Below are positions 7,450 to 64,000 of a stretch of 64,000 nucleotides of DNA, one piece after another. The stretch spans positions 3,932 through 67,931 of the forward strand of contig CAKOIF010000006.1 of assembly GCA_934086485.1 (NCBI GenBank), in the 5' to 3' direction. The stretch is from an uncultured Bacilli bacterium (lineage in GTDB: Bacteria; Bacillota_I; Bacilli_A; RF39; UBA660). The notes beneath the pieces were generated by a model. That model was not told where the DNA came from. It saw only the letters and a program-made list of their open reading frames with translations, and ran no database searches. The position numbers and the translations under genes were made by a program. Each line of letters starts with the position of its first letter. Position 1 is the first letter of the stretch.

Positions 7450-7864
7450 TTTTACTCCTTATATATGTTTCAAGAATTATGGCTGCGGCTTGCATATCAA
7501 CTTTGTCTTTAATGTCTTTAGCGTGTTTGCCATTTGCAAGGAGAATCTTTTGTGCCTCTACTGAGGATAATCTTTCATCCACTAAAGCGACTTTTATATC
7601 AAGCGTTTTAAGAAGCTCGCAAAAATTATATGTTCTTTGAGCAGCAAAGCCTTCACTTCCATCCATATTTTTAGGAAGCCCAATTGCTATTTCTGTTATA
7701 TCCTCTTTAGCAATTATTTCCTTAAGTTCTAAAAAAGCAGTTTCATATTCTTCACTATTAAATCTAATTACTTTATAAGGTGTAATAATTGTATTTGTTC
7801 TATCGGAAATTGCAATACCTAACGTTTTTGTACCTAAATCTAGGCCCATATATCTTGTTTTCAT
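7439..7864 (-). CDS. ruvX: Holliday-junction-resolvase-like / pre-16S rRNA nuclease RuvX (YqgF)
   Basis: N-terminus MGLDLGTKTLGIAISD and size (141 aa) are typical of YqgF. Confidence 0.9.
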   Translation of the reverse strand: MKTRYMGLDLGTKTLGIAISDRTNTIITPYKVIRFNSEEYETAFLELKEIIAKEDITEIAIGLPKNMDGSEGFAAQRTYNFCELLKTLDIKVALVDERLSSVEAQKILLANGKHAKDIKDKVDMQAAAIILETYIRSKNAG

Positions 7865-8196: not shown

Positions 8197-9498
8197 TTAA
8201 TCATTCTTATTTTTAAATTCTAATATAATTGGTGTTCCATCAAGTTCAAAGGTTTTTCTTATTTGATTTTCTAAATATCTTTCATAAGAAAAATGTACTA
8301 ATTTTTTATTATTTACCTCAAAAGTGAATTTCGGAGGTTTAATACTTGTTTCAGAAGCAAAATATATTTTAAGTCTTTTTCCTTTATATGAAGGTGGATT
8401 ATGCATTTGAACGCTTTCAATTATGCAATCATTAAGCGTGCTTGTTGCAATAACTCTATTATGTGATTCATAAGCATTAATTATTTCTGGCATTAATGTT
8501 CCAAGTCTTTTTGAGGTCTTTGCAGAAACAAATACTACTTTAGCATAAGACAAAAACTTAAATTCATTTTCCATTAACAGCTTCCATTTTTTAAGTTCTT
8601 CTTCAGGGCTTTCTACAGTATCCCATTTATTTACACATATTACAATAGCCTTACCAGCATCAGTTATATATGAGGCAATATGTTTATCGTGTTCAATAAT
8701 GCCCTCTTTGGCATCAATTACAAGGACACATACATCACTTCGATCAATTGCTTTTAAAGAACGAATATAAGAATATTTCTCAATTTGCTCATAGATTTTA
8801 CCTTTTTTTCGCATACCGGCAGTATCAATAACAACATATTCATTTCCATTATATTTAAATATACTATCAACAGCATCTCTAGTGGTTCCTGCAATATTAG
8901 AAACTATCAATCTATCCTCTTTCAAAAGAGCATTTACTAATGAACTTTTTCCTACATTTGGTCTTCCGACAAAGCAAAATTTTACTCTATTATCTTCTTT
9001 TTCTTTACCTTCACAAATATTTGCCTCTAAATAAGAATTTAATTTATCAAAACCAATATTATGTTCTGCAGAAATAGCAATCATTTCCTCAAAGCCTAAT
9101 TCATAAAAGTTATATAAATTATTTTGCCTTTCTTTATTATCGGCTTTATTTACTAAAACTAATACTTTTTTATTAGATTTATGAAGCATACTTGCAACCA
9201 TTTTATCTTCAGTAGATATTTCACAAGTGGCATCCACAATAAAAAGGATTAAATCAGCCTCATCAATTGCAAGAGTAGCCTGCGCTAAAATATCTTTATT
9301 AAAGTCACCATTTTCTAAAGAAAGTCCTCCGGTGTCAATCAAATGAAATGCTTTATCTTTTAAATTAACAATTCCATAAATTCTATCTCTTGTAACACCT
9401 GGTGTATCCATTATAATTGATTTTTTTTCTTTTATTAATCTATTAAAAATTGTACTTTTACCAACGTTTGGTTTTCCTATTAAACATACAGTTTGCAT
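8197..9498 (-). CDS. der: Ribosome-associated GTPase Der (EngA)
   Basis: Two tandem GTPase domains (GKPNVGKST...DTGG and GRPNVGKSS...DTAG) plus a KH-like C-terminus. Confidence 0.95.
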   Translation of the reverse strand: MQTVCLIGKPNVGKSTIFNRLIKEKKSIIMDTPGVTRDRIYGIVNLKDKAFHLIDTGGLSLENGDFNKDILAQATLAIDEADLILFIVDATCEISTEDKMVASMLHKSNKKVLVLVNKADNKERQNNLYNFYELGFEEMIAISAEHNIGFDKLNSYLEANICEGKEKEDNRVKFCFVGRPNVGKSSLVNALLKEDRLIVSNIAGTTRDAVDSIFKYNGNEYVVIDTAGMRKKGKIYEQIEKYSYIRSLKAIDRSDVCVLVIDAKEGIIEHDKHIASYITDAGKAIVICVNKWDTVESPEEELKKWKLLMENEFKFLSYAKVVFVSAKTSKRLGTLMPEIINAYESHNRVIATSTLNDCIIESVQMHNPPSYKGKRLKIYFASETSIKPPKFTFEVNNKKLVHFSYERYLENQIRKTFELDGTPIILEFKNKND

Positions 9499-12711: not shown

Positions 12712-12894
12712 ATAATTTCCTCATTTATAATGATATCATAATCTTATCTAACTTACAATTTTAAATTTTGTTGAAAATATTCATTTATTATTTCTAATAC
12801 TTACAATTATGTTTTTTCTATTTTTCTCTATATTTTTAATTACAAAATTTTCATTATAATCAAAATACTATTTCATAAAGTTATATCGCATAGT

Positions 12895-13220
12895 TTAAAT
12901 GTGTTTCATAGATAAAAGTTCTCTATAATGACTCCAGGTCAATTGTGTCCACATTGTGGACACTTTTTGATTACTAAACAAATTATAAAATTGTTTCATT
13001 CTAAAAAGTGTTCTACGATTATATTTTTTACCAACTTCATTAACTAGTTTTTCTGCATATTTACCAATAATATCATTACTGTACTCTTTTCCAGCCTCAC
13101 TTAAAAGTTTACCTACTTCCAAATTAGTAAGAATTTTATTTCTTTTTTTAGATTAATCTTTTATCTTTGCATAAATTTCATTTTTAATAATTTTTCTTTT
13201 ATTTCATCATAATAATTCAT
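12895..13220 (-). pseudogene. N-terminal remnant of a third DUF1016/YhcG-like gene
   Basis: ATG at 13220 reads MNYYDEIKEKLLK and then shifts frame. The 75-aa ORF 12895..13122 matches residues ~35-110 of the two intact neighbours and ends there. Confidence 0.75.
12945..12963. repeat. Intragenic hairpin, copy A (GTGTCCAC-att-GTGGACAC)
   Basis: Perfect 8-bp stem and 3-nt loop, GC-rich in an AT-rich gene. It sits at the same codons (just upstream of LTWSHY) as in copies B and C. Confidence 0.7.
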
Positions 13221-13235
13221 TTAATCATTTCCTTT

Positions 13236-14129
13236 CTAATTTGTAATTTTAAATTCTCTTGCAAATATTCTTTCATCAGAACAGTACTCAATTATAAATT
13301 GATTATTTTTTTTAGATATAATAATACCAATAGTTTTCTCATGGTATGGTTTCTTAATAACTTTATCAACATAATTCATATAAACCTCAATTTGCCCAAT
13401 ATGTTCTTTTTTTAGTTCAGTTACTTTTAATTCAATAACAACATAACAGTTATACTCTGTATTAAATAAAAGTAAATCTATGTAATTATAATTATTACCT
13501 ATTTTAATTTTGTATTCATTGCCTCCATAAAGAAAACCATTACCTAATTGTCTTAAAAAATTATCCAAATTATTAAGTATAGCTTGTTTTAATGCATACT
13601 CGGTTAATTTTTCTTGATTGTCTTCAAATTTAATCAAAATTGGATTTGGCACTAAATCAGGTAACTTTAATTCTTCATTTTTAATTAATTTATTCTTTGT
13701 TTCTTCGCCTAGTCTTTCATATTCTTTGAATTTTATAAGCATTCTTAAACTTCTTACGTCTAAATTTCTTTGTTCACATACTTTAATATAATAATTAATT
13801 TTATTGTTATCATTTAATGGTAATAATTCTACATAATGGCTCCAGGTCAAAAGTTGCGACAACGTCGCGACTTTTGTATCAAAAAAGATATTGTAGAATT
13901 GTTTCATTCTAAATAAGGTACTTCGATTGTATTTTTTACCTACTTCATTAACTAGTTTTTCTGCATATTGGCCAATTATATCATTACCATACTCTTTACC
14001 AGCTTCACTTAAAAGTTTACCTACTTCAAAATAAGTAATAACTTTATTTCTTTCTTTAGAATAATCCTTTACCTTTGCATAAATCTCATTTTTTAATAAT
14101 TTTTCTTTTATTTCATCATAATAATTCAT
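13236..14129 (-). CDS. DUF1016 / YhcG-like PD-(D/E)XK nuclease family protein, copy B
   Basis: N-terminal YhcG-type region (GKEYGNDIIGQYAEKLVNEVGKKYNRSTLFRMKQFY...LTWSHY). C-terminal nuclease core IDLLLFN...VVIELKV. Confidence 0.8.
   Translation of the reverse strand: MNYYDEIKEKLLKNEIYAKVKDYSKERNKVITYFEVGKLLSEAGKEYGNDIIGQYAEKLVNEVGKKYNRSTLFRMKQFYNIFFDTKVATLSQLLTWSHYVELLPLNDNNKINYYIKVCEQRNLDVRSLRMLIKFKEYERLGEETKNKLIKNEELKLPDLVPNPILIKFEDNQEKLTEYALKQAILNNLDNFLRQLGNGFLYGGNEYKIKIGNNYNYIDLLLFNTEYNCYVVIELKVTELKKEHIGQIEVYMNYVDKVIKKPYHEKTIGIIISKKNNQFIIEYCSDERIFAREFKITN
13853..13871. repeat. Intragenic hairpin, copy B (GTTGCGAC-aac-GTCGCGAC)
   Basis: 8-bp stem with one T:G pair on the plus strand and a 3-nt loop. 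The flanking CAAAA/TTTTG can extend the stem. Confidence 0.7.
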
Positions 14130-14144
14130 TTAATCATTTCCTTT

Positions 14145-15041
14145 CTAATTTGTTAATTTAAATTCTCTTGCAAATATTCTTTCATCAGAGCAGTACTCAA
14201 TTATAAATTGATTATTTTTTTTAGATATGATAATACCAATAGATTTATCATCAGTTAAGTCTTTAACATTACTATCAATATAGTTCATATAAACCTGTAT
14301 TTGACCTATATGTTCTTTTTTAAGTTCGGTTACTTTGAGTTCTATAACTACATAACATTTATATTTTACATTATATAAAAGTAAGTCTATATAATTATAA
14401 TTATTACCTATTTTAATTTTGTATTCATTACCAATATAACTAAAGCCATTACCAAACTGTTTTAAAAAATTATCCAAATTATTAAGTATAGCTTGTTTTA
14501 ATGCATACTCGGTTAATTTTTCTTGATTGTCTTCAAATTTAATCAAAATTGGATTTGGCACTAAATCAGGTAACTTTAATTCTTCATTTTTAATTAATTT
14601 ATTCTTTGTTTCTTTGCCTAGTCTTTCATATTCTTTGGATTTTATTTTATTTCTTAAATCATTTCTACTTAAACACTGCTCTTCACAAACCTTAATATAA
14701 TAATTAATTTCATTTATGTCTTTTAATGGTAAAAGCTCTATGTAATGACTCCAAGTCAATTGTTGCGCCAGTGGCGCGACTTTTTCATCAGAAAAAATAT
14801 TGTAGAATTGTTTCATTCTAAATAATGTACTTCGATTATATTTTTTCCCTACTTCATTAACTAATTTTTCGGCATAACTACTAATTATATTATTACCATA
14901 CTCTTTACCAGCTTCACTTAAAAGTTTACCTACTTCAAAATAAGTAAGAACTTTATTTCTTTCTTTAGAATAATCTTTTACCTTTGCATAGATTTCATTT
15001 TTTAATAATTTTTCTTTAATTTCATCATAATAATTTACCAC
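14145..15041 (-). CDS. DUF1016 / YhcG-like PD-(D/E)XK nuclease family protein, copy C
   Basis: Paralog of 13236..14129. The likely GTG start at 15041 lies 6 nt after a GGAGG; the track start at 15128 adds a hydrophobic artefactual extension. Confidence 0.8.
   Translation of the reverse strand: MVNYYDEIKEKLLKNEIYAKVKDYSKERNKVLTYFEVGKLLSEAGKEYGNNIISSYAEKLVNEVGKKYNRSTLFRMKQFYNIFSDEKVAPLAQQLTWSHYIELLPLKDINEINYYIKVCEEQCLSRNDLRNKIKSKEYERLGKETKNKLIKNEELKLPDLVPNPILIKFEDNQEKLTEYALKQAILNNLDNFLKQFGNGFSYIGNEYKIKIGNNYNYIDLLLYNVKYKCYVVIELKVTELKKEHIGQIQVYMNYIDSNVKDLTDDKSIGIIISKKNNQFIIEYCSDERIFAREFKLTN
14762..14780. repeat. Intragenic hairpin, copy C (GTTGCGCC-agt-GGCGCGAC)
   Basis: 8-bp stem with one T:G pair on the plus strand and a 3-nt loop, at the same codon position as copies A and B. 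Confidence 0.7.
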
Positions 15042-15244
15042 TTTGTTCCTCCATTTCTTTAGTTTTTGAATTTTTACTGCAAAATAAAAAGCAGAAAAAC
15101 ATACCATTTTCCTTAAGAAAAGGTACATCTTTCCGCTTCGTATATATTTATTACCCCTATTTAAATATATGTAATCGTCTAATAATAATTGCTTGGTTTA
15201 TAAGAGGTCTACCTTGCATATACATAATATCAAAAATAATTTTA

Positions 15245-37029: not shown

Positions 37030-38580
37030 CTAACTTGCTGTGTAAACATCATTATATGTACCACTGCCTGATAACTTTGCTTTAGATGATAGAGAAACGA
37101 CAGGGCGAGCGCCATATGCACCAGTCACAGTAGCGTAGTCCAAATCACCCGATGAAGAAACAAGGAACCCAAAAGCACCATAAATACTGGAAATAGCAGG
37201 CGACCCCGACCAATAATTTTGGTTTGTATACAAATAATATGAACTGTTGCTTGTATTATATACTCCTCCTGCCATTGCTACTTCATCCGCTGTTATTAAT
37301 CCTACTGGGTAGGTTAATGCCTTATTTCCTATACTACTTCCTTTTGATGTAAATTTATCACTTTCTGTTGGACAAGTTAATATTGGTTTTTTATTACTAT
37401 TTAATCTTACATTTGCTCCATAGAAATATGTTGTGCTAGTACTCATACTTCCACTTATTTCTCCTGGGGTTCCACTACTACTTGTTGTTGCACTTCGATC
37501 GTTACAAAATATTTGATCCGCCACTAAACTTTTTGTCGTTGCATCTATTTCCAATGTTGTTGTTTTATACCAATTATCTATTGCTGTTTTTATTGTACTT
37601 GCGGTGCTAGTTCCGTGTTGTGCACTTGCTGTATACATATAACCTACATACTCTGCTTTATTATAACTACTATTAAAGGTATAAGTTGTCGCATTTATTT
37701 GTGTTCCTGTTCCTGTCATTACTGTCGCTGTACTACTTGTTGGAGCCGTTGTACCAGAGTATATCATCCTTATACTTCCATCGCCATTAATTCTGATTAT
37801 TCTCCAGTACATATCTTTATCTCCTTCTTTTCCAAATTTTACCCAGTTATTATTTACTGCCCCCCTAAAGTAATATGACTTCATTCCAGTTGATGCAGTA
37901 TAATCATCATCAGCTTTATATAATCCTTTTTCACTTGCTGTTGTTACTTTACTAAAATCTGGAGTCGTTTCATTTACTGTATTATTTGCTAAAATTGTTT
38001 CCCATCCTTTTTTCTCTAAATCTATTACATCAGAAACCACTTTATTTCCTGCACTATCTTTAATCCATAAATAATACGTTCCTTCTGTTGTTATTGTAGT
38101 ACTTAAATTATAAGATATTCCACTTATTGAGGTCCAACTTGTTGGTTCAGTGCTGTTACTTGTACTTATTCCATAGCCAGATAGTTCTATATTATCAGTA
38201 AGTATTGCAGTTATTGTTGTGTCATTTATAATTAGATTGGATATAACTGGCTTTTCTGTATCAATTATCTTATCAAAATATAGTGAACACCTATCACTAC
38301 CGATAAAAGAGAAACTTACTGTACCTGAAGTACTATCATAGTTTAATACTTTACCATTATTTTCACAAATAGTCTTTTCTTCATTTAAAACATAATTACC
38401 TTTAGGTATTGCATCTGAACTTATATATTCTCCTGATTCACCTTTTACCATTATTGCTAAATTATTTTTCTTCGGTATGTATTTATTTTTAGGTTTATTA
38501 TATATTTTATTTACAAATAAAATACCTCCAATTAAAATTACTAATGATGTTAAAATTATAATTACCTTTTTATTTTTCAT
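37030..38580 (-). CDS. Membrane-anchored surface protein, hypervariable-C-terminus family (member 1)
   Basis: N-terminal signal anchor. Modules are shared with 47392 (KTICENNGKV...GSDRCS) and 61689 (EKPVISNL...GTYYLWIKDSAGNK). C-terminus NYWSGSPA...[variable]...GARPVVSL. Confidence 0.7.
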   Translation of the reverse strand: MKNKKVIIILTSLVILIGGILFVNKIYNKPKNKYIPKKNNLAIMVKGESGEYISSDAIPKGNYVLNEEKTICENNGKVLNYDSTSGTVSFSFIGSDRCSLYFDKIIDTEKPVISNLIINDTTITAILTDNIELSGYGISTSNSTEPTSWTSISGISYNLSTTITTEGTYYLWIKDSAGNKVVSDVIDLEKKGWETILANNTVNETTPDFSKVTTASEKGLYKADDDYTASTGMKSYYFRGAVNNNWVKFGKEGDKDMYWRIIRINGDGSIRMIYSGTTAPTSSTATVMTGTGTQINATTYTFNSSYNKAEYVGYMYTASAQHGTSTASTIKTAIDNWYKTTTLEIDATTKSLVADQIFCNDRSATTSSSGTPGEISGSMSTSTTYFYGANVRLNSNKKPILTCPTESDKFTSKGSSIGNKALTYPVGLITADEVAMAGGVYNTSNSSYYLYTNQNYWSGSPAISSIYGAFGFLVSSSGDLDYATVTGAYGARPVVSLSSKAKLSGSGTYNDVYTAS

Positions 38581-38800
38581 AACCTACTCCAATTCCGCTT
38601 AAATACTGGAGTACATTTTCCTAGATTATAATCATTTAGGAAAATTGCATCTCAATTTTATGGGAAAAGGACTAGAAATCTAATCAAAAAAATGCTAAAA
38701 TTAGGATAGAAATAGCATAAATACTAGGATTGATTTTCCTATATGATTATACTTTATGAAAGACTATTCCTTATAAACACTGGGTTTGTGAGACTTTTAA
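38581..38800 (-). promoter_or_regulatory. Conserved upstream module L1 of the surface-protein family
   Basis: Shares ordered blocks with 48712-48905 and 63530-63735: ACAAAC-N5-GTTTAT, TTTC(A/G)TAAAGTATAA, GAAAAT-N6-CCNAGTATTTA (twice), CCTTTTCCC(A/G)TAAAAT and TTCCTAAATGNTTATAAT. Confidence 0.6.
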
Positions 38801-38845
38801 ATACTTTTTTTAATACTTAAATTTCATTAAAAAAATGGAGCTTTT

Positions 38846-45994: not shown

Positions 45995-47068
45995 TTACAT
46001 CCCTATCCTATATGGATCTACTTTTGTTCCTGTCCCACTTACCACATATACATTAGATTTCAGATATAAGACTGGTCTGATAGAGCAGCCACGCGAAGCC
46101 GAGAAGTTGTCAAGATAGCCATAGTGGGAAACGAGAAGAGGTTTTGAAGAAGAATATGCACTCATTGTCCATTCATAACCATTTGAAAATAGCCAGTTTT
46201 TATTAGATGAGTTTTGAGGACTTCCACTACTTCCTAATACTCCAGTAAAGCCTTCGATTGCATAACCCCAATCACTTGCATACATCAGTCCTATTTTTGA
46301 AGTACCAGTTGCATGGGTAGCTATTTCCTGAGTATAATAATTTGCTGCAGTTTTATATGTTGAATCTCCTGCATCTATATTATAGTATACATCCTCAACC
46401 ATCTTGCCATAAAAATCAGTTACATCTATTCCATCTAATGAATAATCACATAGACCTTTTGCTGAAGTAAAATATGTATAACAATAACTATCGCATGAAG
46501 ATTTTCTTCCTAAATAACATGTATTTAAAAGATTTTGAATATTACTTCCCATCCATGTTGAATTACCTCCATATTTTATAGCCCCTATTGAATCATTTCT
46601 TATTATTTTTACTCTATTTTGAGTACTACTACATCCACTTTCTAAACATACTGGAATATTTCCTATTATTCTCCATAATTCATCATTAAACCATATATAG
46701 TTATCGGGGTTTTTACCTTGATATCTTTTACCATTTTCATTTCTAGTAGCTTTATTATTAACCTGCGTAATCAAATTAGTTACACTAGAGTTAAACGAAA
46801 CATCACAAGTAACTGTTCCAGTTATTTTAGTTATTTCTAATTTCCATGTTTTAGGATTCCATCTACCTTTTGCATTATTACAATTAACAGTTACATTATA
46901 TTTACCACTTGCTGGAAAAGACGTTGCACTATTACCATCAACAGTTAATGCAATAGTACTTCCTTTATATTTAAATGTTTTATTAGTATTTTTATTAATT
47001 AATATTAATGAAATAATAGAAATTAAAATTAATAATACACATATAACTATTTTTTTACTAGATTTCAA
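45995..47068 (-). CDS. Membrane-anchored surface protein, hypervariable-C-terminus family (member 2)
   Basis: By eye, about 85% identical in protein sequence to member 3 over the C-terminal ~270 aa. The likely TTG start at 47068 lies 6 nt after GAAAGAAGG; the track start at 47134 reads through a hairpin. Confidence 0.7.
   Translation of the reverse strand: MKSSKKIVICVLLILISIISLILINKNTNKTFKYKGSTIALTVDGNSATSFPASGKYNVTVNCNNAKGRWNPKTWKLEITKITGTVTCDVSFNSSVTNLITQVNNKATRNENGKRYQGKNPDNYIWFNDELWRIIGNIPVCLESGCSSTQNRVKIIRNDSIGAIKYGGNSTWMGSNIQNLLNTCYLGRKSSCDSYCYTYFTSAKGLCDYSLDGIDVTDFYGKMVEDVYYNIDAGDSTYKTAANYYTQEIATHATGTSKIGLMYASDWGYAIEGFTGVLGSSGSPQNSSNKNWLFSNGYEWTMSAYSSSKPLLVSHYGYLDNFSASRGCSIRPVLYLKSNVYVVSGTGTKVDPYRIGM
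46079..46153 (-). repeat. VR-like hypervariable patch of member 2
   Basis: Encodes SSSKPLLVSHYGYLDNFSASRGCSI. About 15% A on the coding strand. Homologous to 47245-47318 and 47476-47580. Confidence 0.6.
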
Positions 47069-47107
47069 AATATACCTTCTTTCTAAATTAATTTTAAATG
47101 TCGATAG

Positions 47108-47127
47108 AAGAAGCACGTATGCTTCTT
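47108..47127. repeat. Perfect 8-bp/4-nt-loop hairpin AAGAAGCA-cgta-TGCTTCTT
   Basis: Read directly. It lies between the TR-like copy and the start of gene 45995. Confidence 0.6.
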
Positions 47128-47244
47128 TGCCCATCTATTATTTTTTAAAAGTATAAAACTTTTAAGGATAATTAATATTTCTTATGCTTAACACTTTATA
47201 GCCATAGCCATAAAACCTAAACCAAACACAAGAAGTTCTAAAAA

Positions 47245-47318
47245 GATGGAGTAGCCATTCGAAGCCGAGTTGCTACCCAATAGCCGTTGTTGTTAGCGTT
47301 AAGAGGGTTCGAAGAAGA
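47245..47318 (-). repeat. Isolated noncoding AAC-rich copy of the hypervariable patch (template-repeat-like)
   Basis: Minus-strand sense: TCTTCTTCG AAC CCT CTT AAC GCT AAC AAC AAC GGC TAT TGG GTA GCA AC TCG GCT TCG AAT GGC TAC TCC ATC. Homology to the genes stops at both patch edges. It is not in an ORF. Confidence 0.6.
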
Positions 47319-47391: not shown

Positions 47392-48711
47392 TTATATTCC
47401 TATCCTATATGGATCTACCTTACTTCCATTACCACTTACTACATATACATTAGATTTTAGATATAAGACTGGCCTGATGGAGTTGCCATACGAAGCCGAG
47501 GAGGAGGTGGAATAGGCAAACGAAGCCAACATGTTGCTGAGATAGCCGGGACTGATAGCGTTAAGAGGAGCCGAAGAAGAATATGCACTCATTGTCCATT
47601 CAAAACCATTTGAAAATAACCAATTTTTGTCTGATGAACTTTGAGGACTTCCATCACTTCCTAATACCCCACTGAAGTCTTCGATTGCATAACCCCAATC
47701 ACTAGCATACATGAGTCCTATTTTAGATGAAGTTGTTGCATGAGTTGCTATTTCTTGTGTATAATAATTTGCTGCAGTTTTATATGTTGAATTTCCTGCT
47801 CCTACATTAAAGTATACATCTTCAATCATTTTGCCATAATAGTCAGTTATATCTATTCCATCTGCTGAATAATCACACGTTCCTTTTGCTGATGTAGAAT
47901 ATGAATAGCAATAACTATCACATGATGATTGTTTTCCTAAATAACATGTATTTAATAAATTTTGAATATTACTTCCCATCCATGTTGAATTACTTCCATA
48001 TTTTATAGATCCAATTGAATCATTTCTTATTATTTTTACTCTGTTTTCTGCATTTGCACATCCACTTGTTAAACATACTGGAATATTTCCAATTATTCTC
48101 CATAGTTCATCATTAAACCATACATAATTATCTGGATTTTTGCCTTGATATCTTTTACCATTTTCATTTCTTGTGGCTTTATTATTTACTACTGTAGAAA
48201 GTAGTTCTTCATTACTTGGCGTTTTTGGAGTAAATGTAATATTGCATGATGAATTTGTTTTTGAAATATTATCAATTATAATACCATTAATTTTATAATC
48301 CCATGTACCACCAGTAATGCCATCACAATTAGTAATGCTTTTTGTATATCCCCCTAAAAGGTAATCTGGATTTGGAACATTAATTGTGAAATCTGGTATC
48401 TTTTCATAATATAAATAAACACTACATCTATCAGAACCTAATGTTTGATAAGCTAGTTTATTACCCACTATTGAGACTTTACCACCGTTTTCACATATGG
48501 TCTTGTCTTCATCAATATGATAATTTGTTAAATCACTTGGAATAGTATCTACTGAAGTATAACTTGTTTCTCCATCATTTTTAATATTAAATGCATAAGA
48601 CTTTTTTATAATACTTTTATTATCATCCTTTCTTGGATAAAAAATTATAGATAGAATTACCACTACAAATAATGAGAATAAAATGTATGCATATTTCCGA
48701 TTTTTGCCCAT
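47392..48711 (-). CDS. Membrane-anchored surface protein, hypervariable-C-terminus family (member 3)
   Basis: Signal anchor, an N-terminal module shared with member 1, and a C-terminal region shared with member 2. Confidence 0.75.
   Translation of the reverse strand: MGKNRKYAYILFSLFVVVILSIIFYPRKDDNKSIIKKSYAFNIKNDGETSYTSVDTIPSDLTNYHIDEDKTICENGGKVSIVGNKLAYQTLGSDRCSVYLYYEKIPDFTINVPNPDYLLGGYTKSITNCDGITGGTWDYKINGIIIDNISKTNSSCNITFTPKTPSNEELLSTVVNNKATRNENGKRYQGKNPDNYVWFNDELWRIIGNIPVCLTSGCANAENRVKIIRNDSIGSIKYGSNSTWMGSNIQNLLNTCYLGKQSSCDSYCYSYSTSAKGTCDYSADGIDITDYYGKMIEDVYFNVGAGNSTYKTAANYYTQEIATHATTSSKIGLMYASDWGYAIEDFSGVLGSDGSPQSSSDKNWLFSNGFEWTMSAYSSSAPLNAISPGYLSNMLASFAYSTSSSASYGNSIRPVLYLKSNVYVVSGNGSKVDPYRIGI
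47476..47580 (-). repeat. VR-like hypervariable patch of member 3
   Basis: Encodes SSSAPLNAISPGYLSNMLASFAYSTSSSASYGNSI. Carries a 30-nt insertion relative to member 2 and the TR-like copy. About 14% A on the coding strand. Confidence 0.6.
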
Positions 48712-48905
48712 AACTTCGCCTTCCTTTTTTCGTAAATTATATACATTTAGGAATTTTTATAGGCGATTTTATGGGAAAAGGGGTAGCAAAAATTAAAAAA
48801 ATTTGGTAAAATATATACATAAGGTAGGAAAATACTGGGATATATTTTCTCAAAAGTATATAATTTATGAAAAATAATGTTAGGTAAACGCTGAGTTTGT
48901 AGGAC
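48712..48905 (-). promoter_or_regulatory. Conserved upstream module L2 of the surface-protein family
   Basis: Has the same ordered blocks as L1 and L3, but the second GAAAAT-N6-CCNAGTATTT box is replaced by the RBS. Confidence 0.55.
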
Positions 48906-49156
48906 ATATCAGTGTTTTTTTATTTTTTAGTAAAAATAATAATACTTTACACTTTTTTAATATGTATAATTATGTAAAGTTTTTAGATAAAATATGTAAA
49001 TAAAATGTAAAATTTTGACTTTTTTTAAAAAATTTATCAAAAAAAGGAGGAAATTAGAAATTTTCCGGTAATAAGTATAGTGAAAGAAGAATTTTAAAAT
49101 GACATAGAAAATAATAAAAAGTGTAAAGTAGAATTTTTTCAAAAGGAGGTAAGAAT

Positions 49157-50158
49157 ATGACAGAAAATACTTTATATAATTCAAACAAAAAAGGACAATT
49201 TATGAAAGATAAGTTTGCAAGAGCTATACTAACTAACCCTGCAAATGAAGACTATTTAATAGCACTTTATAACTCATTAGAACCAGATAAAAATATTAAA
49301 GCAATTGGTGCTAAAATAATAACTAATGAAATTAATAATTATAAAGATGCTAAAGAAAGAATTACTGATGCAATAATGGAGGTAGAAACCACTAAAGGAA
49401 TTGATTTAGTTAATTTTGAAGTAAATGCTTTTAAATCTGATAAAATAATTAGAAAGAACCTATCTTATGTTTGCCATATGGTAATTAGAATGGTAGATGA
49501 AAATACGGGAGAATATTACAATAAGGTTGTACAAGTTAATATTAATAATTTTGATAGATTTGGGCAAGGAAAATTTGTATATAAATCAGAACTTTTTCCA
49601 AATGCTGAAGAGTTATTAGTAATATATGACATAAATGTTGCATTATTATCAAAAATGTCATATGATGATTATAGAAAATTTAATAAATTATCAACTGAAT
49701 ATTTATCTATAATTTTTACAAACAACGATGAGAAAATTTTCAAAGGTAATAAAATGATAATGAAAATAGTAAAGGAGTTGGAAGATATGTCAAAAAGTTT
49801 AGATGAGATGCTATACTATAATCCGGAAGAGTTTCTTAAGAAGGCTGCGCTTGATGCAATTACCGATGACATGAAAAAAGAAGCAGCCCAAAAGTCAGTT
49901 ACTGAAGAAATGAAGAAGGAAGCAGCACGAGAATCTGTTACTGATGAAATGAAGAAGGAAGCAGCACGAGAATCTGTTACTGATGAAATGAAAAAAGAAG
50001 CTGCAATTGAAATTGTAATCGAAGAAAATAATATAGCTGCTGCAAAAGAATTAATTAAAAATGGTATATCAAAAGAAATTATCTTAAAATCAATTGATAT
50101 AACTGAAAAACAGTATAATGATCTAAAAAATGAAGTTCAAAAAGAAACTAATAAATAA
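49157..50158 (+). CDS. Rpn/YhgA-like PD-(D/E)XK putative recombination-promoting nuclease with a repetitive C-terminus
   Basis: N-terminal region (ITDAIMEVETTKGIDLVNFEVNAFKSDKIIRKNLSYVCHM) resembles the PDDEXK_2 family. Good RBS AAAGGAGG. Confidence 0.55.
   Translation: MTENTLYNSNKKGQFMKDKFARAILTNPANEDYLIALYNSLEPDKNIKAIGAKIITNEINNYKDAKERITDAIMEVETTKGIDLVNFEVNAFKSDKIIRKNLSYVCHMVIRMVDENTGEYYNKVVQVNINNFDRFGQGKFVYKSELFPNAEELLVIYDINVALLSKMSYDDYRKFNKLSTEYLSIIFTNNDEKIFKGNKMIMKIVKELEDMSKSLDEMLYYNPEEFLKKAALDAITDDMKKEAAQKSVTEEMKKEAARESVTDEMKKEAARESVTDEMKKEAAIEIVIEENNIAAAKELIKNGISKEIILKSIDITEKQYNDLKNEVQKETNK
49859..50014 (+). repeat. About four tandem 39-nt (13-aa) repeats inside the Rpn-like gene
   Basis: Units encode (I/V)T(D/E)(D/E)MKKEAA(Q/R)(K/E)S. 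Units 49898-49936 and 49937-49975 differ at one base. Confidence 0.85.
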
Positions 50159-61688: not shown

Positions 61689-63529
61689 TTATCCAATATG
61701 ATATGGATCTGTAGAGGTTCCTGTTCCTCCAACTATTTTTAGGATACTAGAATCTAGATAAAATGTTGGTCGGACCGCAAACTGGCTAAGGCGGACATAA
61801 CTATCAGAGTAAACACGACCAGCCGAACGCAAACCAGAAGCACCATCCGAATACGAGCCATACGGGGTAAGTAACCATTCATCTTTATTAGACCCCCAAC
61901 TAGTTACTTGTGATGTAAATACCCAATCATTATTTTTACAATCACTATATGATGAACTGTTCCAATTATATAATGCTTTAGCTCTACAATTTGCCTTATA
62001 GTTGTACTACCACCAACTGTTGCATATCCATAATCGCTTGGATACATTAGTCCTACTTTAGCAAATACATATTCCGGATTACCACTATATAAATTTTGTA
62101 GTGTCCCACTTGTAGCATACGGACTTCTTTCTGCTTTATAATAGTTTTCTGTTGTTATTGTTTGACAATAATATTTACTTGATGAAGTTGCATTTTCCCC
62201 TCCTAAATGCCATTTTGCATTTACTATTGTACTGGATAATTTACTATTTACTCCACTTGTGGCAAGAAGTGTACTTAAGTAAGTTCCATTAAGTTCTGTT
62301 TTCAATGTTGCTGTAGACCAGTCATTAAGATTTTTACCGCTAGTTTGTGTTTGATTCCAATACTTACCACTTGTTCCTCCATAGTTATTTGTATCAAGTA
62401 TTTTTAACAAATTTTTTTTACCTGCACTAGTTGTTCCATTTGAGGAATATTCTTCTTTAAATAAACCTATTATTCTAAATAATAATGAAGATGAAGAACA
62501 AGTACCTTCTTTATTACTATCTAAGCATATATAATTATTTGGATCTGCTCCTTCATACCTTATACCATTCTCATTAAAAATATCTGTATTATTTGCTACC
62601 ATTAATGTCTCAAATGATGTCCCGAGTGATATTGTAAACTCTTTTGTAGTTTTGTTATTAGCACTATCTTTTACCCATAAATAATATGTTCCTTCAGCAT
62701 TTTGTGTAAAGGAAATTGTTTGACTTGTTCCTGAAAAGCTATTATATTCTTCAGGCTCTATAGTACTACTTTCACTTACTCCATAAAATGCAAGTGATAT
62801 GTTATCTGTAGCGGTAAATGTAACTGTAGTATCGTTAACACTTAACGAAAAAATAACTGGTGCTTCACTATCACTATTTTTATCAGCATATACATTACAT
62901 ATTGCTTTTTTGGTTGTTAATACTACAATGTTTCTCCCAACTATTGAAACTGTTGCTCCATTCGTACAACTTGTTTTACTTGTATTTATGGTGTAATAAT
63001 AACCTGTTTCATATAATGGTAATTGGCCCATTTGATTATAATTTTTATCATCAGTATTGCCTAATTCTTGTTGAACAAAAAGGTTTACTTCATAATCATC
63101 AATATAACCATCAATTGCATCAAAGTATACTTTACATTTTCCTTTCTTTGTGGCATCTACATAAAACTTTTGATTTTCATATTTTTCTATTGTTATTCCT
63201 GTATCACATACTGTCTTTGAACTTTGATATGTGTATGAAGTTGCACTTGGCACATAATAAGAAAGTGCATATGTACCAAGACCTACTCCATTATCATTTT
63301 TATTTTCTCTATATACTTTGATTGATACATCTGATGAATCTATTAAAGCTACTCCGGAGATTATTAATTTTGAACTCTTATTTTGATAAAATGAATATGA
63401 TATTAAAATTATACTAGAAAGTATTGATAAAATAATTATTGTTAATATTGTTAAGCATCTTTCTTTATTATTACTATAATACTCCTTAAAATTATTTACT
63501 AATTTTTTCAAACCTCTCACACCTTCCAA
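61689..63529 (-). pseudogene. Surface protein, hypervariable-C-terminus family (member 4), with a 1-nt frameshift near 62000
   Basis: The track ORF ends in out-of-frame sequence after ...YGYATVGGSTT. Shifting frame at ~61998-62002 restores KANCRAKALYNWNSSSYSDCKNNDWVFTSQ...EWLLTPYGS...AVRPTFYLDSSILKIVGGTGTSTDPYHIG* (stop at 61689-61691). The start is either TTG 63529 or TTG 63511. Confidence 0.7.
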
Positions 63530-63735
63530 ACCTAGGTAAATACTGGCATCTATTTTCGCAAATTATAAACATTTAGGAAAACGGCATATCGATTTTACGG
63601 GAAAAGGACTAGAAATTCACTCAAAAAAATGCTAGAATTAGATTAGAAATAGCGTAAATACTAGGATAGATTTTCTTAAATGTTTATACTTTACGAAAGA
63701 CAAAGCCTTATAAACACTGGGTTTATGAGGTTTTT
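63530..63735 (-). promoter_or_regulatory. Conserved upstream module L3 of the surface-protein family
   Basis: Collinear with L1 block by block, including both GAAAAT-N6-CCNAGTATTTA boxes. Confidence 0.6.
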
Positions 63736-63789
63736 AATTACTTTTTTTAATTAAAAAAAAATTAGTATTTTTACATACCAATTTATTTT

Positions 63790-64000
63790 TTAACCAATAT
63801 GATATGGATTTGGTGATGTTCCTGTTCCTCCGACTATTTTTAACATACTAGAATCCAAATAAAATGTTGGTCTAACAATATATTTACCGCTTGCTACTGA
63901 ACCAGCAGTTCCATTCATAGCAGATACGCTTCCAGTCCAACCTAGCATCGCTGCACCATATGAGGTGACCGAATCTGGTGAAATCATCCATTCTCCACCA
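63790..64000 (-). CDS. Surface protein, hypervariable-C-terminus family (member 5), C-terminal fragment cut by window end
   Basis: GEWMISPDS...[variable]...YIVRPTFYLDSSMLKIVGGTGTSPNPYHIG*. The 3' ~90 nt are closely similar to 61689-61780. Confidence 0.7.
   Translation of the reverse strand, partial: GGEWMISPDSVTSYGAAMLGWTGSVSAMNGTAGSVASGKYIVRPTFYLDSSMLKIVGGTGTSPNPYHIG

Follow-up and report, generated by a model that had tools for sequence, protein, structure and literature searches.

In a diversity-generating retroelement (DGR), a non-coding template repeat (TR) is transcribed, a complex of reverse transcriptase (RT) and Avd makes cDNA from the transcript while misreading template adenines, and this cDNA replaces the variable region (VR) of a target gene. 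We analyzed a 64-kb chromosomal stretch of an uncultured gut bacterium (the window, meaning the whole 64 kb), in which five paralogous genes, members 1 to 5, each carry near the 3' end a short patch that is poor in adenine (A) and rich in GC. The best explanation, to which we assign a probability of about 0.8, is that each patch is the VR of a DGR target in paralogous, membrane-anchored surface proteins of this 26%-GC bacterium (of the 'Mycoplasma sp. CAG-472 / RF39-type Bacilli' group), and that the system is now static in this lineage.

The chromosomal DGR of Treponema denticola serves TvpA and up to seven remote targets, and some isolates have partly lost the core cassette and kept the targets (PMC4891356, PMC5758913). 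It is like the window family in being chromosomal and not phage-borne, in having several paralogous surface proteins and in having targets far from the RT. It is unlike it in that one TR serves all targets there, whereas the window family has at least three scaffold types that need different TRs; moreover, at least one TR of this family lies beside its targets with no RT nearby. The DGR of Stenotrophomonas sp. SKA14 has two TRs and several tandem targets and is reported as a single locus (PMC6642488, PMC5758913). It shares with the window family the possession of more than one TR and of paralogous target arrays; however, the window family has dispersed TRs and an RT that is either absent or no closer than 17 kb.

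The DUF6273 targets of gut phages and Faecalibacterium prophages have a C-type-lectin-like domain, a C-terminal VR and Ig-like domains in the same protein (PMC11792537, PMC10743442), features that the window proteins appear to share, and they were the best structural matches of our model. In contrast, those targets are tail or capsid proteins within a compact cassette, and the window proteins are chromosomal, membrane-anchored and arranged in paralogue arrays, with a similarity to Pfam DUF6273 that is below threshold. The DGR of Bordetella phage BPP-1 (mtd, avd, TR, brt) and the system described here, including its relatives in other genomes, have in common adenine-specific TR-to-VR differences, an Avd-like accessory gene, a conserved spacer between TR and RT, AAY codons in the TR and a VR at the C-terminus of a (here predicted) C-type-lectin fold. 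In BPP-1 one target, one TR and one RT lie together, whereas the window itself has VRs and one orphan TR only, and the cassettes of its relatives have an extra open reading frame (ORF) of 92-99 aa. A full-text literature search for DGRs together with RF39 gave no paper. TRs that stand beside targets and far from an RT are the unusual part, and a dispersed layout with several TRs may be new.

The family features of the window are listed below. Fetched loci from other assemblies are cited by L number.

37030..38580, minus strand: gene of member 1, an ORF of 516 aa, with an N-terminal membrane helix, a beta-rich (Ig-like) region and a C-terminal DUF6273-like domain predicted from structure models and BFVD matches to DUF6273 proteins.
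37096..37212, minus strand: putative VR of member 1, WSGSP...GARPVV, 36 codons from W to R; an A-poor patch that varies among orthologues and aligns in register with the TRs of the L099 and L095 cassettes.
45995..47134, minus strand: gene of member 2, an ORF of 379 aa (357 aa as called in public assemblies).
46079..46153, minus strand: putative VR of member 2, 75 nt, equal in length to the intact TR.
47245..47318, minus strand: orphan, damaged TR of the member 2/3 type, between members 3 and 2, with A-biased mismatches to both VRs.
47392..48711, minus strand: gene of member 3, an ORF of 439 aa (99 orthologues aligned).
47476..47580, minus strand: putative VR of member 3, 75 nt plus a 30-nt insertion within 47504-47541 that has GGCTTCG repeats on both flanks.
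61689..63529, minus strand: member 4, a pseudogene in the window strain, with one G lost at about 61998/61999.
61768..61880, minus strand: putative VR of member 4, EWLLTP...AVRP, not translated in the window strain.
63790..64000, minus strand: member 5, 3' end only (619 aa on the full contig).
63893..63990, minus strand: putative VR of member 5, EWMISP...IVRP, 40 codons, the least A-depleted of the five patches.

The conserved brackets around the patches were those described in an earlier, sequence-only reading of this DNA: YWSGSP...GARPVVSL in member 1, EWTMSAY...SIRPVLYL in members 2 and 3, EWLLTP...AVRPTFYL in member 4 and EWMISP...IVRPTFYL in member 5. That reading had called the patches unalignable between members, which needs correction for members 2 and 3; their patches align except where member 3 carries its 30-nt insertion. 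At least three VR scaffold types occur in the family, of 36, 32 and 32-40 codons, in agreement with the proposal that different members need different TRs. Beyond the window end (L189 1-10000), three further paralogues of the member 4 type (604, 487 and 484 aa) come after member 5, and then a P-type ATPase gene; members 4 and 5 form with these three a tandem array of five, all with the same C-terminal type. The source contig has eight family genes, and each related genome about ten or more.

Patch composition was determined by exact counts on the coding (minus) strand, with the rest of the window on the same strand as background (A 40.2%, GC 25.9%). The patch of member 1 (37096-37212) contained A at 12 of 117 positions (10.3%) with 51% GC, that of member 4 (61768-61880) at 14 of 113 (12.4%) with 52% GC, that of member 2 (46079-46153) at 11 of 75 (14.7%) with 48% GC, that of member 3 (47476-47580) at 15 of 105 (14.3%) with 52% GC, and that of member 5 (63893-63990) at 22 of 98 (22.4%) with 49% GC. 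An A-poor, GC-rich patch is thus present in all five C-termini (10-22% A, 48-52% GC), as had been claimed. Windows of equal length elsewhere in the 64 kb that were at least as A-poor made up a share of 0 for members 1 and 4, 4.5e-4 for member 2, 2.1e-4 for member 3 and 4.4e-3 for member 5; none was at least as GC-rich as the patches of members 1, 3, 4 and 5, and a share of 3.4e-4 reached the GC content of the member 2 patch. The shift is not a matter of amino acid content alone because third codon positions were shifted too: the patches had a GC fraction at these positions (GC3) of 0.38-0.63 and an A fraction (A3) of 0.00-0.08, compared to 0.13-0.15 and 0.41-0.47 in the rest of the same genes. 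The remark that the patches use rare GC-rich codons in an otherwise A/T-rich genome stands, and the A-free scaffold codons TCG, GCG, CGC, CCG, GGG and GTG are otherwise rare in the source genome.

Randomization of every A in the average coding strand of the window predicts a composition of A 10, C 20, G 26 and T 44%, and the observed composition of the member 1 patch was A 10, C 22, G 29 and T 38%. In the proposed mechanism, AAY codons of the TR would become NNY in the VR, and fixed residues would be kept by A-free TR codons. The patches would be A-depleted because Asn codons (AAY) of the TR turn into NNY, with about three-quarters of the adenines lost, and they would have GC-rich A-free codons because residues needing fixity are encoded without A in the TR. 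The non-A scaffold contributes to the depletion, and rewritten Asn codons account for most of it. Horizontal transfer of GC-rich DNA and assembly error are both rejected as sources of the patches, which keep the reading frame between their conserved brackets and recur without change in many independent assemblies.

Homologues were collected for member 3 (1,378 matches) and member 1 (7,747 matches). Among 99 full-length relatives of member 3 at 75-85% identity, high-entropy columns occurred only in the patch, where they alternated with invariant residues in the pattern EWTMSAYSSSxPLx[AV]xxxGYLxxxSASxGx[SA][IA]RPVLYLKS; the 30-nt insertion of the window VR was missing from nearly all of the orthologues listed. 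Likewise, 62 orthologues of member 1 varied only at discrete patch codons, with the pattern YWxGSPxxFxSxxxxAxEFxVxSSGxLxxxxVxxxxGxRPV. For the member 4/5 type, 80 metagenome loci were fetched and gave 57 distinct DNA sequences, in which the variable codons had an entropy of 1.4-1.9 bits at positions 1 and 2, and position 3 was T or C and almost never A (NNY). The codons between the variable ones were A-free and GC-rich (TCG, GCT, TTG, GGG, GTG, GCG, CGC, CCG). Flanking sequence was conserved up to the patch edges in homologues of members 1 and 3 and of the member 4 type. The NNY pattern is the expected remnant of adenine-directed mutagenesis of AAY codons; loop selection or gene conversion would not fix third positions.

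A TR of the member 2/3 type was found in the 257-nt spacer of members 3 and 2 (47245-47318, minus strand), where it reads TCTTCTTCGAACCCTCTTAACGCTAACAACAACGGCTAT-TGGGTAG-CAACTCGGCTTCGAATGGCTACTCCATC. It was located through a gene in L094 that is fused to an Asn-rich tail, and an adenine-tolerant rescan confirmed it. The window TR has 74 nt. An intact homologue of 75 nt occupies the equivalent position in L184-L188, a related lineage that is widespread, with CTCAACAA (8 nt) where the window has TGGGTAG (7 nt), and L094 has a variant of this TR. The two conserved halves of the window TR differed from the member 3 VR at 9 A sites and 3 non-A sites, and from the member 2 VR at 11 A sites and 5 non-A sites, the non-A mismatches being mostly C-to-T or G-to-A. 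The intact TR of L184 had 12 A-site mismatches and 1 non-A mismatch to the VR of the adjoining member 2 orthologue, and 11 and 7 to that of the member 3 orthologue. VR and TR of this type share only TCCATC past the last variable codon, a candidate end of the initiation of mutagenic homing (IMH) site. The region around the window TR folds better than shuffled sequence (z = -3.7). In L094 (10001-11263), the VR of the member 3 orthologue continues without a break into the TR and what lies downstream of it; either recombination between VR and TR has deleted the DNA in between, or the assembly has collapsed there.

No RT ORF was found within 17 kb on either side of the window TR or anywhere in the 64-kb window, and none within 4 kb of the TR in L184-L188. 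The TR therefore stands beside its targets and away from any RT, which would presumably have to act on it in trans.

TRs of the member 1 type were found in the relatives. Among 78 loci from species-representative genomes scanned for cassettes, one (L063) had a complete cassette beside a family member, in the order target, bAvd-like gene, 99-aa ORF, TR, RT. Its TR encodes WAGSPNEFNSNNANEFNVNNDGNLNNNNVNNNNGVRGV, and base by base all 22 TR/VR mismatches were at TR adenines. Homologues of the L063 RT led to more cassettes, including L095/L096 and L099/L100, which come from the same cohorts as the window strain (Hadza, MERR22-1) and whose TR reads LWSGSPNNFNSSNANEFNVN(SS/DD)GNLNNNNVNN(N/T)NGARPVFS and a stop. 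The cassettes of relatives have an RT (PF00078, with YMDD and IGNxxSQ motifs), bAvd (PF22296), a TR encoding LWSGSPNNFNSSNANEFNVNSSGNLNNNNVNNNNGARPVFS and a stop, and an additional ORF of 92-99 aa between avd and TR. RTs with the YMDD and IGNxxSQ motifs adjoin family members in L063, L092, L095 and L099. Compared to its own target, the L099 TR had changes at 25 A sites and at 0 of 76 non-A sites. Taken together, the window TR, the L184 pair and the L099 cassette have TR/VR differences almost only at TR adenines, which with the A-free scaffold codons and NNY variable codons bears out the proposal that the patches are DGR VRs on a non-A scaffold.

The window VR of member 1 aligned codon for codon (36 codons, W to R) with the TRs of L099 and L095. 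The L099 TR and this VR differed at 28 of 38 A sites and 11 of 76 non-A sites (Fisher p=6e-10), and the 3' end of the VR, GGCGCTCGCCCTGT, was one base off the L099 TR. A candidate IMH lies at this end, where the VR finishes with GGCGCTCGCCCTGTC and the L099 TR with GGCGCTCGGCCTGTA. Given the codon-for-codon match and the non-A mismatches, the member 1 patch therefore appears to have been written from a TR of this type and not from the L099 or L095 copies. The RT-bearing contigs of the same cohorts were considered as the window genome's own machinery and rejected; none was tied to the window genome, and their TRs were 11-14 non-A sites off the member 1 VR. The neighborhood of the member 1 gene differs from the cassette loci and has no cassette. 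Adenine-tolerant scans of the window found no own TR for members 1, 4 or 5, as the sequence-only reading had noted, and the contig extension and about 190 related loci gave none for these three members either. Each of the three scaffold types in the window would have its own TR: beside the targets for the 2/3 type, in cassettes of relatives for the 1 type, and not found for the 4/5 type.

Orphan TRs also occur in L076 (UMGS1172), where two TR copies share 1.5 kb of non-coding DNA and the nearest 10 kb contain no RT. One of the copies is paired with a VR at a distance of 3.5 kb, and 83% of the differences in this pair are at adenines. The motif TAGGAWACAAG-N6-CMTTGG comes after each copy (7534-7556 and 8404-8426). 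This motif was present once per locus between TR and RT of 13 cassette loci (motif loci besides L076 being L063, L089-L093 and L095-L103) and otherwise only in L076 among 194 loci. The motif is a candidate element for recognition or priming of the TR RNA, and its presence both at the L076 orphan TRs and in the cassettes suggests that one RT can use distant TR modules. A search for it in viral contigs gave 19 exact matches, which is within chance by rough estimate, and the match inspected (L195) fell within an ordinary phage gene that has no RT in its vicinity. The RT genes of L089 and L090 keep the motif and have no TR in the 300 nt upstream (L089 1-304). Three tyrosine-recombinase genes precede the RT in L103 (506-3981).

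It is possible, although we hold the idea only tentatively and would not bet on it, that RF39-type bacteria run a distributed DGR in which one RT-Avd cassette serves several scattered TR modules, each beside its own target or array. If so, one enzyme would use many templates, and at least eight surface proteins of a small genome would be diversified on at least three scaffolds. On this view, the window would capture such a system as it decays, its TR damaged, its VRs frozen and one of its genes a pseudogene.

Member 4 has lost one G at about 61998/61999, where ACTAGTAAGG in relatives is ACTATAAGG in the window, so that the frame shifts and stops before the VR. The patch, which lies downstream of this 1-nt deletion, is therefore untranslated in the window strain. 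The same lesion is present in L010 and L191, and L190 and L192 have an intact gene of 610 aa. The patches of members 4 and 5 and of the downstream paralogues differ in length. That members 4 and 5 were written by a DGR is suggested by their composition and codon signature. Members 1, 4 and 5 had been proposed as further targets of the same or a related system; all three have the signature of DGR-type VRs (members 4 and 5 by codon signature only). Because member 4 is a pseudogene and the window TR is damaged, 'past targets' is the better reading for the window strain.

Contigs of the same lineage from several samples had 2-151 differences over the 7-22 kb compared (99.1-99.99% identity). Across L001-L010 and L190-L194, there were zero differences in VRs and TR. 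This test was unbiased for members 2, 3, 4 and 5 and the upstream paralogues because the contigs were retrieved through other proteins. The VR of member 5 was identical in L190, L191 and L192, and that of member 3, including the 30-nt insertion, was identical in 5 cluster members with up to 6.5% divergence elsewhere. The exact member 1 protein was present on 18 contigs, and in its 90% cluster 11 proteins were 88-100% identical outside the VR and had a VR that was identical or differed by 1-3 residues. VR differences between near-identical strains, a mark of ongoing diversification, were thus absent in the window lineage but present in other lineages of the family. The expectation of patches hypervariable among strains failed for this lineage, in which every VR was identical in every contig; patch-restricted hypervariability was found only between more distant orthologues. 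Strain differences between L189 (4622-4829, 8324-9160) and L190-L192 clustered in the middle parts of family genes, with identical VRs, and are consistent with gene conversion between paralogues.

Two rival scenarios were weighed. One is that the five members are active DGR targets now, with an RT-Avd cassette and the missing TRs elsewhere in the genome acting in trans, and that the stasis reflects one clone shared among hosts or cohorts. VRs do turn over in other lineages: of the pairs within the member 3 family with 99% identity or more outside the VR, 23% carry completely different VRs, as do two member 1-family pairs at 97-99% identity outside the VR. This scenario would also fit the single-base difference between the L099 TR and the member 1 VR at its 3' end, the presence of member 1-type TR cassettes in the same cohorts (Hadza and MERR22-1), and the motif shared by the L076 orphan TRs and the cassettes, which suggests use in trans. 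However, the VRs are identical in contigs from several samples that differ at up to 0.9% of sites, and the member 1 VR was kept across 12% protein divergence. The change of 8 nt to a scrambled 7 nt in the window TR alters its length by 1 nt and would frameshift any target rewritten from it, member 4 is already frameshifted, and the member 3 VR, with its 30-nt insertion, no longer equals the TR in length. The non-A mismatches between TR and VR, mostly C-to-T or G-to-A, are as expected of drift since the last homing. We therefore regard present activity as unlikely. Most likely the VRs are not being rewritten in the window lineage and are relics of past homing, with the machinery lost, damaged or very rarely active; the system would be decaying in the window strain.

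The other scenario, that the patches are ordinary hypervariable surface loops diversified by selection and gene conversion among paralogues, with a composition that follows from Gly/Ser/Ala/Tyr-rich sequence and no retroelement, might draw on the gene-conversion-like mismatch clusters elsewhere in family genes, the patch lengths that vary between members and the lack of a TR for members 4/5, but we consider it highly improbable in view of shifted synonymous positions (GC3 0.38-0.63 vs 0.14), variable codons of NNY form with position 3 held, TRs with adenine-specific differences for two of three types, and flanks conserved right to the patch edges.

Several results weigh against our own explanation, past DGR targets now static. 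For the member 4/5 type, no TR was found in the window, the contig extension or about 190 loci, 80 of which comprised a member 4-type gene and 6 kb of sequence on its flanks; scanning for Asn-rich ORFs, testing by BLAST for mismatches biased to A and searching every locus in adenine-tolerant mode gave nothing beyond chance. For the member 1 VR, the only matching TRs are heterologous ones, which have 11-14 non-A mismatches to it. There was no RT in L189, which covers about 7.6 kb of the source contig past the window end. No Avd was seen in the window or in the contig extension of about 7.6 kb, and the flanks of four of the five members had no recorded match, although no search was aimed at a small four-helix protein across the window. 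The motif TAGGAWACAAG-N6-CMTTGG, present after every other TR examined, was not at the window TR even with 3 mismatches allowed. The stasis could reflect one recently spread clone and not an inactive system. Finally, the assignment of the modeled fold is weak, with template modeling (TM) scores of 0.3-0.45 and a Pfam DUF6273 match below threshold.

In the proposed mechanism, the VR would lie at the C-terminal end of a DUF6273-like domain of surface proteins. DUF6273 has been described as a C-type-lectin-like domain of DGR targets, in which the VR is C-terminal (PMC11792537, PMC10743442). A first model, of full-length member 1 with 30 close homologues, gave a predicted local distance difference test score (pLDDT) below 50 for the C-terminal domain. 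A second model, of the last 326 residues with a deeper mixed alignment, had a pLDDT of 71.6 and a predicted TM score of 0.72, and it places the VR (fragment residues 266-302) in beta-strands at pLDDT 84-91. Matches of the C-terminal model in BFVD, a set of predicted viral structures, included several gut-phage DUF6273 proteins and some DUF1566 proteins (E 9e-4 to 0.1, TM 0.3-0.45; best E 9e-4 to 5e-2). A structure search of PDB gave no significant match (E at least 0.5), the weak matches being mostly C-type lectins, including the Legionella Lcl C-terminal domain, and a PDB profile search of the family gave no match. No match to Pfam PF19789 (DUF6273) was above threshold; the best, to a longer homologue (P0134), scored 22.1 bits where the cut-off is 23.5, and 4 of 30 family members matched at E 0.015 or weaker, with none among the window proteins. 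Modeling thus speaks in part for the C-type-lectin-like DGR-target fold that had been suggested as a check: the model resembles DUF6273 in BFVD, but the PDB and Pfam searches were not significant. The C-terminal domain likely has a DUF6273-like or C-type-lectin-like fold.

These results have some practical use. A short, A-free, GC-rich gene end in a very AT-rich genome marks a DGR VR even without an RT or TR nearby, and this helps to annotate fragmentary metagenome contigs. Gut bacteria of the RF39 / 'Mycoplasma sp. CAG' kind, which are uncultured and have small genomes, devote many genes to retroelement-diversified surface proteins, if the patches are read correctly here, and this bears on the binding of hosts, phages and neighboring cells. 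Two questions become testable, namely the use of distant templates by DGR RTs and the fate of target genes after a system stops firing.

The window has 26% GC and nearly all of its genes on the minus strand; genes outside the family include topoisomerase I, hrcA-grpE-dnaK-dnaJ and an LtaS-like sulfatase. A near-identical sequence is present on a Hadza gut-metagenome contig of 80,407 nt, with 2 differences in 21.5 kb compared. The closest species representative among the fetched loci was uncultured 'Mycoplasma sp.' MGYG-HGUT-04242, with about 92% nucleotide identity over the shared stretch, and further relatives were 'Mycoplasma sp. CAG:472', 'CAG:776' and Hadza 'uncultured Bacilli' genomes. 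We take these relatives to be RF39-type gut bacteria.

Two loci of MGYG-HGUT-04242 (L027 10001-12265 and L032 7700-9403) encode single proteins with two tandem VR-bearing domains. The L027 protein has a member 1-like module followed by a member 4-like module, each with its own bracketed patch; the first module of the L032 protein differs from that of L027, and again each module has its own bracketed patch. Within the window, a conserved leader of about 215 nt lies directly 5' of members 1, 3 and 4 (38600-38814, 48711-48925 and 63537-63751), with 62-85% identity between copies. It is probably a shared family promoter or 5' untranslated region; Rfam gave no match in the window, the leader included. 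A plus-strand gene (49157-50158) contains a 39-nt tandem repeat in four copies (49838-50004) that encodes ...VT(D/E)EMKKEAA... units. These repeats are the only other strongly T-poor plus-strand stretch and are unrelated to the patches. At 12865-15128, a unit of about 909 nt occurs three times in tandem (75-96% identity) and encodes paralogous proteins of about 300 aa.

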